A DNA stretch of 64,000 bases from assembly GCA_021513695.1 (NCBI GenBank), contig CP084166.1, positions 224,001 to 288,000 on the forward strand, in the 5' to 3' direction. This DNA is from Candidatus Heimdallarchaeum aukensis (GTDB lineage Archaea; Asgardarchaeota; Heimdallarchaeia; Heimdallarchaeales; Heimdallarchaeaceae). How positions within the stretch are numbered: the first letter of the stretch is position 1; every line of letters starts with the position of its first letter. This document shows positions 56,114 through 59,269 of the stretch, in pieces. Under the pieces are notes generated by a model that saw only the letters and a list, made by a program, of their open reading frames with translations, did no database searches and was not told the DNA's origin. A program made the translations under genes and the position numbers.

Positions 56114-59100
56114 ATGAAAGGAACTGCTATTGCCACATCAAAATTTCAAGGTAAGAATCAAGCTATTTATTCAATAAAAAAAGATGATAAAATTACTTTA
56201 TACTGTGCGTTCATTATTAGACCAAAAAAGAAAGAAGTTGAGAAAAAAGGAGATTATGAAAAAAAAACTACTATTTTTGTAACAGATACTAAAAGTCTTT
56301 TTTTGCCTTTGAATATTGATTCAAGTCTAAAAATTATGCTTCACCGCTTTATTTTACCAGCTAAACTCAGAAAAATAACAAAAGAAAAAAATAAAGGAAT
56401 AGAAATCTCTAGAAAAAAAGAAGAGAGTGAAGAAATCAATGTATTTTTAACTTATTATATCTTTAAAATCTCAAAAACTTATGATCTTACCGTAAATTTA
56501 CTTTCAATGAATACATTGTTAGAAGATTTTGCAGAAACTGTTAGATCTAATTTAAAAGAGTTGTTCTTATCTTTAGGAGCAGTAGGAAGAATAACAGGAG
56601 AATTATTAGAAAAAATCGTTTGTTTGAATGTTACAGATAAATCGTCTATTATCAATAACAACTCTAAAGAATTTTTAACAGAGCTTGCAAAAGAGTTTGT
56701 TGTAATAGAAAAAAGTACAGAAATCCAATCAATTTTCCTCCCTGGTCCTTCCGTAGATTTAAGAACTTCGAGTGTATTTTTTACTCCTTCAAGAATAGAA
56801 TCTGCTTTTCCTTTAGGGAAGACGGAAGAAGGTTTTCTTGTAGGCTTTCCTCCCTCTTTCTCTTACCCCATACTTTTGTGTGGAGATAAGAAAATAAGAA
56901 AAATTTTACTCTCCAAAATTTTAGAAAATTCATCTGCTAAATTTATTGTTTTAGGAGAGATAAATGGAAAAATAAGAAAAAAGAATGTAAAGTTAAGTTT
57001 AGGAGAGAATTTTACATTTAATATCTTATCTCCTATGTTTATGCGAAAAGTACTGTCAGAGAGAGATTATTGGCGTTATCTGAGTGATTTTCTACTCATA
57101 GTTAAAGAAGTAACCGAAGTTAGAAATGAAAATCTTTTACAAATTCCTGAAATAATTAAATTTTATATCCAAGAATATGAACAAAGTGAAGATAACCTCT
57201 TTACTCCTTTTGATTATAGTTCTGTAACTATTGACGATATTTATACAATGCTTACATCTGAACCTGGAGGATTAATAATTTCAGATTATCAATTAGCTGC
57301 TTTACGTTCTGTTTTTACTGATATTAGCGATAATTCAGTTAGCACGGTAACTAATATTAATGGAAAACATGGAATTGAAGCATTAATTGACCAGAACCAT
57401 ATAATTGACTTCAGTAAACATTCAATAAAAGTTAGAAAAATATTCGTTTATTCGTTATTGCTTCAACTTTATTTATATTTTCAAACAGATTTAATTTCTA
57501 AACCAGTAATAGTAGTAATCGACAATGCAGAATTATTCTTTTCAACTGAAGTTGAAAGAACTTTTATTTCAAAACTACTCACACTATTTGAATCTCTACC
57601 TGTAAATATTATCCTTTCAACAAGTTTTCCTTCTCATCTAGCTCTTACTGCTTTTGATTTAACAAATAATAGAATTATAGCTAATCTTCGCTCTGCTAAG
57701 TGTGCAAAATTAATTGCTGATTCACATAATTTATTAAAAGAACAGAAAGAAATGCTTCTTCGCCTTCCACAAAATTCCTTTCTTATCCTCCGGGAAGATT
57801 TTTTTGAGAAACCCTTTCTTGCTTACTTACAAAGAGAAGATCTAAATTTGTTTTCTAATTCCAGACGATTCAATCTTGAAAAATTGGATTCATTAGTAGA
57901 TATTGGAAACACTAGTGCAATTTTAGAAGATGAAAATAGAGTAATTGAACCTATTTTTGATGAAGAAGATCTTCTTCCTATTATGATTGATATTTTAAGA
58001 AAACTTGATTCTAAAGCTCAAAGGGGAATCAACTCTGAATCATTGGTTAATCTCTTTCCTGACTATCCTGCAATTGAAGTTAAGAATGCTGTAAAATTAT
58101 TAGAGTTAAGAGGATTGATTTTTCGTGAGACAGTTGATAAAGAAGGAAGAAAAGGTGAATTTTGGACAAAAATAAGTCCTTTAGGCAAGAAAATGTTATC
58201 TAGATTCGAGATTCAATCCATAGCAAAGAATGATAAAATTGACAAAGTTGAACGAAAAGAAGAGGAGATAACTATTTTAAAAAATGAACAAAGTCATAAT
58301 GAAAAAATATCTAACAAAAAGCAAAACAATGGAAAAAAAGATTCTTTAGAACAATCAGAAGTTATTAACCATTTAGAGAAGGTACAAAACAATTTAAAAA
58401 ATAGTAGGAATCCTGTTGATGCTTTTTTGGATTCAATAATGAAAGTTGAAAAAAAAGCCATACAAATATTCTCAAGAAAAGGTAAAAAGATAGGTAAAAT
58501 TTCAGATTTTTACATTTTGTTACATGACTTTATCCAAAAGGCAAAAGCTGTAGATTTCAATATTCAATCAGAGCTAAAAGAGTTTGAGCAGTACTTAAAC
58601 TCACTTTATGATGTTTTAGAAGATAGTGAATCCCTTGAACAAATGTCAGATGAAATATTAGAAAGAGTAATGAGAAAAGGATTAAATCTCTTAGATCAGA
58701 TACATGTTAAATGTTCTTTTGATAAGATCGAAAGAAACTCCAGTAATCTTCCAGAACTTCTTGAAAAAGAATTAAATTCTGATAAATGGGAAAACATTGA
58801 AACTAAATTTGATGATGAAGTAGTGAGTGATATTAAGCATAATATAAAGAATGACATACAATCAATGTTCTTAACTGATTCTGAAAAACAAGTTTTTCAG
58901 GTACTTAATCATGCATTAGAAGCTCCTAAAGACAGTTTTATTGATTATGCTAGAAAAGCTATAGCAAGACTAATGAAAATAAAAATGCAGTTTTACCCTA
59001 ATCTCGATGATAAAGAGTTTATTATTATTTTTGTAAGATTCTTTGAAAAAAATCAATTACCAATACCGTTTAATGAATCGATTCTGATGGTTGATGAACT

Positions 59101-59269
59101 AGCTTTTCTTAGCACAATTTCCAAACAAAAGAAAAAGGAAATAATCGCGAAAATAATAGAGGAAAATAACTCATTTGTGTTTGATTTAGATGATAAAAGT
59201 AAAGATAGTCTTGTTATTCAGTTAAAGGAAATTGTCTCAAAAAGTCTAAGAAAGTTAAAAGAGGAATAA
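56114..59269 (+). CDS. Large (1051 aa) hypothetical protein; HerA/FtsK-like Walker-B-type motif without a recognisable P-loop, and a winged-helix-like domain near the C terminus
   Basis: 'KPVIVVIDNAELFFSTEVERTFISKLL...NIILSTSFPSHL' resembles the hhhhDEAH Walker B plus following motif of HerA/VirB4-type ATPases. No GxxxxGK[ST] is found. 'SESLVNLFPDYPAIEVKNAVKLLELRGLIFRE' is wH-like. Long coiled Lys/Glu-rich C-terminal third. Confidence 0.5.
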   Translation: MKGTAIATSKFQGKNQAIYSIKKDDKITLYCAFIIRPKKKEVEKKGDYEKKTTIFVTDTKSLFLPLNIDSSLKIMLHRFILPAKLRKITKEKNKGIEISRKKEESEEINVFLTYYIFKISKTYDLTVNLLSMNTLLEDFAETVRSNLKELFLSLGAVGRITGELLEKIVCLNVTDKSSIINNNSKEFLTELAKEFVVIEKSTEIQSIFLPGPSVDLRTSSVFFTPSRIESAFPLGKTEEGFLVGFPPSFSYPILLCGDKKIRKILLSKILENSSAKFIVLGEINGKIRKKNVKLSLGENFTFNILSPMFMRKVLSERDYWRYLSDFLLIVKEVTEVRNENLLQIPEIIKFYIQEYEQSEDNLFTPFDYSSVTIDDIYTMLTSEPGGLIISDYQLAALRSVFTDISDNSVSTVTNINGKHGIEALIDQNHIIDFSKHSIKVRKIFVYSLLLQLYLYFQTDLISKPVIVVIDNAELFFSTEVERTFISKLLTLFESLPVNIILSTSFPSHLALTAFDLTNNRIIANLRSAKCAKLIADSHNLLKEQKEMLLRLPQNSFLILREDFFEKPFLAYLQREDLNLFSNSRRFNLEKLDSLVDIGNTSAILEDENRVIEPIFDEEDLLPIMIDILRKLDSKAQRGINSESLVNLFPDYPAIEVKNAVKLLELRGLIFRETVDKEGRKGEFWTKISPLGKKMLSRFEIQSIAKNDKIDKVERKEEEITILKNEQSHNEKISNKKQNNGKKDSLEQSEVINHLEKVQNNLKNSRNPVDAFLDSIMKVEKKAIQIFSRKGKKIGKISDFYILLHDFIQKAKAVDFNIQSELKEFEQYLNSLYDVLEDSESLEQMSDEILERVMRKGLNLLDQIHVKCSFDKIERNSSNLPELLEKELNSDKWENIETKFDDEVVSDIKHNIKNDIQSMFLTDSEKQVFQVLNHALEAPKDSFIDYARKAIARLMKIKMQFYPNLDDKEFIIIFVRFFEKNQLPIPFNESILMVDELAFLSTISKQKKKEIIAKIIEENNSFVFDLDDKSKDSLVIQLKEIVSKSLRKLKEE

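Follow-up and report, generated by a model that had tools for sequence, protein, structure and literature searches.

A HerA/FtsK-superfamily protein with a predicted dead ATPase site in a conserved DNA-processing and envelope gene cluster of Heimdallarchaeota

The use of inactive P-loop domains for DNA binding or as scaffolds is an established theme, and the type VII secretion proteins EssC and EccC, with their degenerate FtsK-like ATPase domains, provide a precedent for non-catalytic FtsK/HerA domains acting as regulatory or scaffold modules. Pseudo-ATPase scaffolds of the ring-translocase fold are known as domains inside larger active proteins, whereas a stand-alone HerA/FtsK family that is dead in all its members and under strong purifying selection has, to our knowledge, not been described. 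Here, we describe a candidate for such a family, represented by a gene of Candidatus Heimdallarchaeum aukensis that occupies positions 56114 to 59269 (+ strand) of a 64,000-nucleotide stretch of contig CP084166.1 (positions 224,001 to 288,000, ~29% G+C; hereafter the window). The closest detectable relatives of its product are uncharacterised proteins that combine DUF87 with a winged helix (wH), with or without a C-terminal restriction endonuclease (REase)-like segment (e.g., P0024, P0025, P0028 and P0030). These proteins of 550–725 amino acids (aa) retain the GxxGxGK[ST] motif, a DEAH-type Walker B, the arginine finger and the sensor-1 Gln, unlike the Heimdallarchaeial protein. Our literature searches returned no description of this protein family or of the gene cluster to which it belongs.

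The open reading frame (ORF) is intact, starts with ATG and encodes a protein of 1051 aa, which is 100% identical to a hypothetical protein from a Candidatus Heimdallarchaeaceae metagenome-assembled genome (MAG); a transmembrane (TM) scan detected no TM segment in it. Its parts are listed below. The ratio of non-synonymous to synonymous substitution rates (dN/dS) refers to the comparison of the window gene with its H. endolithica orthologue (82% identity over the full protein, 86% over the N-terminal 701 aa), and the predicted local distance difference test (pLDDT) to an AlphaFold2 (AF2) model of aa 1–701 that was built on a six-sequence alignment.

56114–59269 (+): whole gene, encoding the inactivated HerA/FtsK-superfamily protein with wH and C-terminal domain (ORF confirmed; dN/dS 0.13)
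56114–56803 (+): putative N-terminal beta-rich domain, aa 1–230, in the position of the HerA HAS-barrel (AF2 strands at aa 19–124, pLDDT mostly <50; dN/dS 0.07)
56804–57853 (+): degenerate ASCE ATPase core, aa 231–580 (Foldseek and hhalign; pLDDT 70–85 at aa 250–510; dN/dS 0.09)
56867–56905 (+): Walker A relic P252–I264, PILLCGDKKIRKI, without GK[ST] (hhalign, MAFFT and alignment of 32 members)
57509–57541 (+): Walker B relic V466–F476, VIVVIDNAELF, with D470 kept and the catalytic Glu replaced by N471 (alignments of 32 members and canonical relatives)
57590–57634 (+): arginine-finger position E493, and strand 4/sensor-1 I499–S507, IILSTSFPS (MAFFT against seven canonical DUF87-wH proteins)
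57965–58213 (+): wH domain, aa 618–700 (pLDDT 70–83; aligns with the canonical wH; dN/dS 0.09)
58214–58603 (+): variable Lys/Glu-rich linker, aa 701–830 (conservation 0.38–0.5, the lowest; charged fraction 0.35; dN/dS 0.21)
58604–59266 (+): conserved C-terminal domain, aa 831–1051 (column conservation 0.5–0.63; dN/dS 0.09)

Whether run with the single sequence or with a profile, searches of Pfam, NCBIfam, PHROGs and PDB sequences gave nothing useful for the protein, and the Pfam DUF87 model did not match it at threshold; the sole match was that of the PADLOC mad8 model to the Walker B region (aa 458–558, E = 9e-9). An exhaustive hidden Markov model (HMM) search of 1.84 billion representatives yielded 44 matches, comprising the family itself (1025–1208 aa), fragments of it and weak matches to Pfam DUF87 proteins of 500–725 aa, some of them with HerA_C. 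By profile-profile comparison, the family aligned with seven canonical DUF87 proteins over 457 columns covering core and wH (hhalign probability 99.5%, E = 4.8e-23). The AF2 model has a mean pLDDT of 54.6, with the higher values listed above in the core and the wH, and a Foldseek search of the PDB with this model returned 47 matches at E ≤ 1e-3. The best of them was VirB4 (4ag5, E = 2.7e-7, probability 1.0), and DndH-C (7es4), TrwB (1e9s), HerA-Sir2 (8uae), HerA-NurA (9x1m) and TdpAB were likewise matched with probability 1.0, the E-values from VirB4 to HerA-NurA ranging from 2.7e-7 to 1e-4 and the HerA-type matches including 9x1m and 7f6d. An ORC/Cdc6-like AAA+ identity was considered and rejected, since it rested on a single weak match (7jpq_D, E = 6e-4) against 43 top matches that are all of the HerA/VirB4/TrwB type.

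The wH segment was not matched by any Pfam wH model; its modelled secondary structure (helix 618–633, loop, helix 653–665, strands 669–673 and 683–687, helix 689–700) and its alignment with the wH of the canonical relatives by hhalign nevertheless identify it as a winged helix. The initial annotation of this gene, made from the sequence alone, had likened the string KPVIVVIDNAELFF (from aa 463) to the Walker B and downstream motif of HerA/FtsK/VirB4-type ATPases, had noted a wH-like segment (aa ~650–700), and had called for a structural comparison; the predicted core does resemble HerA/VirB4-type folds, and the profile alignment, the mad8 match and the modelled wH agree with it. Given the fold matches and the profile-profile homology to DUF87-wH proteins, the descent of the protein from the HerA/FtsK/VirB4 superfamily, and from the branch whose active members carry DUF87 and a winged helix, is well supported.

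The active site was compared in an alignment of 32 distinct family members, which come from metagenome contigs and 26 species-representative genomes; their cores were also aligned with the canonical relatives. A regular-expression search found no [GA]xxxxGK[ST] in the window protein or in any full-length member, and GK[ST] is absent from 32 of the 32 distinct members, while 13 full-length canonical P-loop-bearing matches retain GxxxxGK[ST]. Where canonical proteins have GxxGxGK[ST], the family has hhhxG[DE]xKxR (LLCGDKKIRK in the window). According to hhalign, G257 corresponds to the first Gly of GxxGxGKT and GK[ST] was lost in a 3+2-residue deletion; MAFFT alternatively sets R262 at the position of the Walker A Lys, with a one-residue deletion. 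In the model, a helix starts two residues after strand 1. The string LLCGDKKIRKIL (aa 254–265), put forward in the initial annotation as the best but degenerate P-loop candidate, thus lies at the Walker A position, and GK[ST] is deleted or substituted there in all members.

The other signatures have gone as well. The DEAH-type Walker B with its catalytic Glu has become D470-N471-A-E in the window; most members have D-D-A-E, and the H. endolithica orthologue has N-N. Upstream of strand 4, the arginine finger of the canonical proteins is replaced by E493 in the window and by E or D in the family, and at the end of strand 4 the sensor-1 Gln is replaced by S504 in the window and by S, P or A across the family. 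Both residues, which are retained in 6 or 7 of the 7 canonical DUF87-wH relatives in the MAFFT alignment, define the HerA-FtsK clade (PMC10853773). Within the close subfamily, G257, D258, K259 and R262 are invariant; deeper members are more eroded, with GELPAR and IENLDE in L006, L008 and L009, GGLQKQR and LENAE in L007, and GEEKTN and IIPQME in P0059. All four NTPase signatures have therefore been lost in every member, and the family can be described, from its residues, as a catalytically dead HerA/FtsK-superfamily protein. This extends the pseudo-ATPase proposal of the initial annotation, which had been based on the missing P-loop. Lacking P-loop, catalytic base, arginine finger and sensor, the protein would be unable to translocate DNA on its own.

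A GKT tripeptide at aa 235–237, overlooked in the initial annotation, was examined as a cryptic P-loop and rejected: K236 is V, A or L in other members, and the tripeptide lies ~20 residues upstream of core strand 1, where it aligns with the canonical 'hG' linker motif and not with Walker A.

The loss of the active site is not accompanied by decay of the gene. Purifying selection acts on the whole protein (dN/dS 0.13) and is strong in the N-terminal domain (0.07), the wH and aa 831–1051 (0.09 each), and the ratio of 0.09 in the degenerate core marks the protein as a pseudoenzyme rather than a decaying gene. The ORF is intact in ~30 genomes at 34–86% identity, far more than chance would allow; a pseudogene was thus rejected. 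Across the family, column conservation peaks in the core and the wH. The linkers evolve faster, with a dN/dS of 0.21 at aa 701–830 and 1.3 at aa 581–617. This latter linker, between core and wH (window 57854–57964), is very short and its estimate of ~1.3 is noisy, but both flanking domains have values ≤0.09, and the hinge has experienced either relaxed or diversifying evolution. Of the long Lys/Glu coiled-coil tail mentioned in the initial annotation, the richness in Lys and Glu holds for the variable linker at aa 701–830, but aa 831–1051 form a conserved domain (zero matches in Pfam or PDB sequences).

All organism-named full-length members found among the 1.84 billion representatives belong to Heimdallarchaeota or to the Asgard group. 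A genome scan, using an alignment that reaches the close subfamily only, detected 26 loci in species-representative genomes, all of them Heimdallarchaeota MAGs, with one locus per genome; in one MAG the gene is split across two contigs, and the complete chromosome of H. endolithica holds one locus. The family is restricted to Heimdallarchaeota and present as one locus per genome.

The initial annotation placed the gene in a helicase/ATPase operon. A helicase gene and an ATPase gene do lie close to it, but they form only one section of a much larger conserved cluster, whose genes in the window are as follows.

41578–42669 (+): RadA/Rad51-family recombinase with helix-hairpin-helix and Rad51 domains (Pfam Rad51, E = 1.9e-51; NF003301 RadA, 230 bits with a cut-off of 259)
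46426–52791 (+): 2121-aa immunoglobulin (Ig)-repeat surface protein with signal peptide and C-terminal TM anchor, present in both lineages described below (Pfam Big_1, Big_3_5, CarboxypepD_reg and MG4; TM scan)
52849–54264 (+): 471-aa protein, conserved in the cluster, whose N-terminus carries two TM helices (TM scan)
54274–54909 (+): membrane protein with four TM segments; its stop codon overlaps the start called for the RadB-like gene (TM scan; counterpart in the second lineage)
54890–55525 (+): small RadB-like (Rad51-paralogue-like) ATPase with intact P-loop (TIGR02237 RadB, E = 2.5e-14; Pfam KaiC/AAA_25)
55586–56056 (+): 156-aa protein with PD-(D/E)xK nuclease fold and invariant E25, D49, E64 and E66
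59282–61393 (+): 703-aa superfamily 2 (SF2) helicase, Hel308/Ski2-like, with SWIM zinc finger (Pfam DEAD and Helicase_C; Hel308-type NCBIfam; PADLOC HamB)
61432–63276 (+): 614-aa predicted membrane-anchored surface protein, located upstream of the 471-aa gene in most genomes (locus labelling, TM scan)

The 156-aa protein encoded just upstream of the dead ATPase belongs to a family of 60 clusters, of which all named ones come from Heimdallarchaeota or the Asgard group. Its model (pLDDT 89) shows an alpha-beta-beta-beta-alpha-beta core in which strands 2 and 3 carry acidic residues, and because of this modelled topology we assign it to the PD-(D/E)xK fold; E25, D49, E64 and E66 are invariant in 42 of 42 sequences. 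The protein is accordingly a predicted nuclease with a D...ExE site, a pattern also seen in BamHI. We do not claim that it is a split-off version of the C-terminal REase-like segment of DUF87-wH proteins, since hhalign gave a probability of 4.7% and no relationship.

In the RadB-like protein, the Walker A Lys-Thr and the Walker B Asp (hhhIDh) are kept in 28 of 28 aligned orthologues, mostly as GPPxSGKT. Seven orthologues have C, S or A in place of the Gly that precedes the Walker A Lys (GPPGSCKT and similar). In most genomes the protein has 308–368 aa (e.g., L005 82–1158) and begins with ~150 additional residues of acidic, low-complexity sequence, which the 211-aa version of the window lacks. 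The listed TTG start of the window gene (54890–54934) overlaps the upstream membrane-protein gene, and an alternative in-frame ATG occurs at codon 16 (MIHLYGPPASGKTT), 25 nt past the upstream stop.

The helicase encoded downstream scores 161, 159, 136 and 131 bits with Hel308-type models whose cut-offs are 887–1216, and does not qualify as a Hel308 equivalog; PADLOC HamB models match it over partial SF2 stretches with up to 116 bits (E = 2.6e-34). The PSSxGKT, DEFH and CxCx9CxH motifs are conserved in 22 of 22 orthologues. Its SWIM finger, CSCQSKYSNYLCRH (aa 518–531), is inserted in the C-terminal half of the Hel308/Ski2-like helicase. This SWIM helicase is encoded two genes away from the Rad51-paralogue-like ATPase, and in eukaryotes the SWIM protein SWS1/Shu2 partners with Rad51 paralogues.

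The RadA gene adjoins the cluster in 10 other loci, directly after the helicase gene in seven of them and otherwise within two or three genes. Two RadA clades have been reported for Heimdallarchaeia in a preprint, and the window RadA may represent one of these paralogue clades.

Gene neighbourhoods were compared after ORF calling and phmmer labelling of all loci, against the cluster components only. In most genomes the order is the 614-aa surface protein (Surf614), the 471-aa protein (g471), the four-TM protein (TM211), the RadB-like ATPase, the 156-aa protein, the dead ATPase and the helicase, followed in some by RadA and the giant Ig protein. The window, L002 and L011 instead have TM246, the giant Ig protein, g471, TM211, the RadB-like ATPase, the 156-aa protein, the dead ATPase, the helicase and Surf614, and in the window RadA, a 384-aa membrane protein and g443 come ahead of this array. 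All window genes from 44359 to 63276 lie on the + strand with gaps of 2–60 nt. The RadB-like gene is always upstream of the dead ATPase gene, and the order nuclease-like protein, dead ATPase, helicase is kept in every locus with enough sequence. In most loci, the 156-aa gene overlaps the start of the dead ATPase gene by 7–74 nt and the latter overlaps the helicase start by 8 nt; these start-stop overlaps suggest that the three genes are translationally coupled. The four-TM gene overlaps the RadB-like gene by 8 to 26 nt in every locus with both, as the ORFs were called.

Homologues of the dead ATPase with only 17–19% identity occur in a second, deeply diverged lineage. There, the order is the giant Ig protein, two unknown proteins, a four-TM protein, a Rad51/RadB-like protein, Hef (on the opposite strand), the dead ATPase homologue and a 160–176-aa homologue of the small protein, and three or four genomes share the same flanking housekeeping genes. 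The Hef is bona fide (NF010337, 727 bits with a cut-off of 610, for the 834-aa gene of L006). Despite this rearrangement, the envelope genes are kept co-directional with the RadB-like, nuclease-like, dead HerA-like and helicase genes in the two lineages (window 44359–63276; L006, L008, L009 and L011–L036). The 471-aa protein found no family match in library scans that included Pfam, PADLOC and NCBIfam.

Several features were noted at the borders of the cluster. Just upstream in the window lie a transposase gene with rve integrase core and helix-turn-helix domains (37854–38792, + strand) and a TnpB-like ORF with a Cas12f1-like TNB domain (33989–35443, – strand), which suggest insertion sequence activity as a possible cause of the altered gene order in the window lineage. 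Further upstream is a gene for a 935-aa GH38 alpha-mannosidase-like protein (29292–32099, – strand). A search of the window for tRNAs found none. In H. endolithica, unlike in the window, the cluster is directly followed by genes for a BsaWI-like restriction endonuclease and an N6/N4 methyltransferase (L003 10896–13007, – strand, and the equivalent in L011).

We propose, with a probability of about 0.5, that the 1051-aa protein is a HerA-like platform that binds DNA without catalytic activity of its own and links the nuclease-like protein to the helicase at damaged or branched DNA. This proposal draws on relatives in which a HerA ring mounts a nuclease or other effector (HerA-NurA, Sir2-HerA and DndH-type systems) and on the precedent of PINA, discussed below; the assembly would resemble HerA-NurA, HerA-effector and PINA-Hjm-Hjc complexes in which only a scaffold is left of the ring. 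The platform, probably oligomeric as in its relatives, would contact DNA through the wH and through the former pore or ATP-site surface that carries the invariant GDKKxR. It would dock the small nuclease and the helicase (Hef in the second lineage) on damaged DNA, stalled forks or recombination intermediates; the motor function and ATP-dependent control would have been handed over to the helicase and the RadB-like protein, and the RadB-like ATPase and RadA would work in the same pathway. What selection preserves is the fold, the positively charged relic of the nucleotide site, the wH, the C-terminal domain and the overlap with the nuclease-fold and helicase genes. The repeated linkage to Hef, the Hel308-like helicase, the Rad51 paralogue and RadA, together with the lineage-wide single-copy distribution in a conserved chromosomal context, argues for a core role in repair or recombination rather than in defence.

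Several observations weigh against this platform model. The AF2 model is weak overall and only the core and the wH can be used, and the oligomeric state, DNA binding and partner contacts of the protein are all features that we infer. The 156-aa partner has ExE in place of ExK, and its nuclease activity is a prediction; the helicase scores far below the Hel308 cut-offs (161 bits against 887–1216), which makes 'fork-repair helicase' an analogy. The conserved membrane and surface genes of the array are not accounted for by a purely cytoplasmic repair role. Finally, the invariant GDKKxR and the kept Walker B Asp may still provide a binding site for nucleotide or for a different phosphate ligand.

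This last point leads to the suggestion that the protein is still an NTPase or an NTP-binding switch, in which K259, K260 and R262 replace the P-loop Lys and D470 and D471 bind Mg2+. The invariance of G257, D258, K259 and R262 in the close subfamily, the placement of R262 at the Walker A Lys by MAFFT, the two acidic residues of ID-D-AE in most members and the position of the site region among the most conserved of the protein are all consistent with such a switch. We nevertheless consider it improbable, and the least likely of the alternatives weighed here: charged residues replace the glycine-rich anion hole, the loop is 1–5 residues shorter with a helix starting two residues after strand 1, the Ser/Thr Mg ligand has been lost together with the arginine finger and the sensor-1 Gln, and the Lys residues themselves are missing from the deeper members (L006/L008/L009, L007 and P0059). 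An anti-virus or anti-plasmid defence role is also unlikely, if somewhat less so. The cluster would then be a Hachiman-like, 'HerA/FtsK capture' or HerA-effector system in which the dead HerA senses or scaffolds and the PD-(D/E)xK protein is the effector, as could be read from the HamB matches of the helicase (E = 2.6e-34), the mad8 match of the dead ATPase, the HerA-Sir2 structures among its Foldseek matches and the restriction-modification system that adjoins the cluster in H. endolithica; combinations of HerA/FtsK, wHTH and REase domains have also been described as counter-invader systems (PMC10853773). However, the HamB matches are to generic SF2 stretches and score below Hel308-type models, and the 156-aa protein has no PADLOC match and a best structural match that is not HamA, so that the adjacent HamA (DUF1837) of the two-gene Hachiman system is not provided by this partner. 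Moreover, a single locus per genome with conserved gene order in 26 Heimdallarchaeial MAGs, identical housekeeping flanks in three or four genomes of the second lineage, and linkage to RadA, the RadB-like protein and a bona fide Hef speak against a defence role.

The envelope genes could point in another direction, to DNA exchange. The whole co-directional array of ~20 kb would then be a Heimdallarchaeial envelope apparatus for intercellular DNA exchange or import coupled to homologous recombination, made up of RadA, the Ig-repeat surface protein, membrane proteins, the RadB-like protein coupled to the four-TM protein, the nuclease, the dead VirB4/HerA-like ring, the SWIM helicase and the second surface protein, and the 1051-aa protein would serve as a cytoplasmic docking and DNA-handover ring like CedB/TedB or a coupling protein. 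The best Foldseek matches are indeed the type IV secretion ATPases VirB4 and TrwB, both deeply diverged lineages have kept the multi-pass membrane and surface proteins in the cluster in spite of rearrangement, and the membrane-protein gene overlaps the RadB-like gene, as called, wherever both occur; the Ced and Ted import loci rely on a VirB4/HerA-like ATPase and have HerA-like and Rad50 genes nearby (PMC9905601). Against these points, library scans revealed no pilin, VirB6/CedA-like or secretion-ATPase homology for any of the membrane genes, an ATPase without ATP-site residues cannot drive transfer, the protein has no TM segment, and the adjacency may be the inherited order of two unrelated operons. 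We regard this exchange apparatus as quite unlikely, slightly more so than a defence role. If true, it would be a third, independently evolved analogue of Ced and Ted, existing in two rearranged versions in the archaeal lineage nearest to eukaryotes.

Heimdallarchaeota, to which the family is confined, are the closest archaeal relatives of eukaryotes. In eukaryotes, the repair of forks and cross-links involves the cooperation of Rad51 paralogues with the SWIM protein SWS1 and with HELQ or FANCM, and Hef is a relative of FANCM/XPF. Because of this cooperation, the cluster offers a concrete archaeal module for considering how accessory recombination factors were organised before eukaryogenesis.

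Compared with the described systems, the platform that we favour shares different elements with each of them. VirB4/TrwB and CedB/TedB resemble it in fold (best Foldseek matches 4ag5 and 1e9s), and membrane proteins are encoded nearby in both cases, but they are active, membrane-associated motors with VirB2/VirB6-type partners, and no such partner was detected in the cluster by Pfam and TM scans. In Sir2-HerA, the DUF4297-HerA system 'Nezha' and DndH/'HerA-FtsK capture', a HerA-family ring is a platform for an effector nuclease, with wHTH and REase domains as frequent companions; these systems have an active HerA and are sporadic and mobile, whereas the Heimdallarchaeial cluster occurs throughout the lineage and has RadA, a RadB-like protein and Hef as linked genes. 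The degenerate domains of EssC/EccC lie in cis beside an active one, whereas the family described here is dead as a whole, stand-alone protein. DUF87-wH proteins share with it the FNxL motif, the strand order and the PS motif after strand 4, but lack its long N-terminal domain and its 350-aa C-terminal extension and have no known link to its neighbours.

The HerA of the HerA-NurA (Mre11-Rad50) system belongs to the same superfamily, has the same fold and is likewise genetically coupled to nuclease and recombination genes, but it is an active hexameric translocase, and the fold of NurA is RNase H-like and not PD-(D/E)xK (PMC9905601). A Pfam scan of the window genes from ~29.3 to 63.3 kb identified no NurA, Mre11 or Rad50; this negative does not extend to the window upstream of ~29 kb or to the related loci, whose genes were labelled against cluster components that do not comprise these three families. 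The logic that we propose is also that of PINA, a ring ATPase of Sulfolobales that binds the helicase Hjm (Hel308a) and the PD-(D/E)xK resolvase Hjc (PMC6061704): in PINA-Hjm-Hjc, a ring-forming P-loop protein makes physical contact with a Hel308-type helicase and a small PD-(D/E)xK nuclease, and together they process forks and Holliday junctions, as the dead platform and its partners would do in the Heimdallarchaeial cluster.

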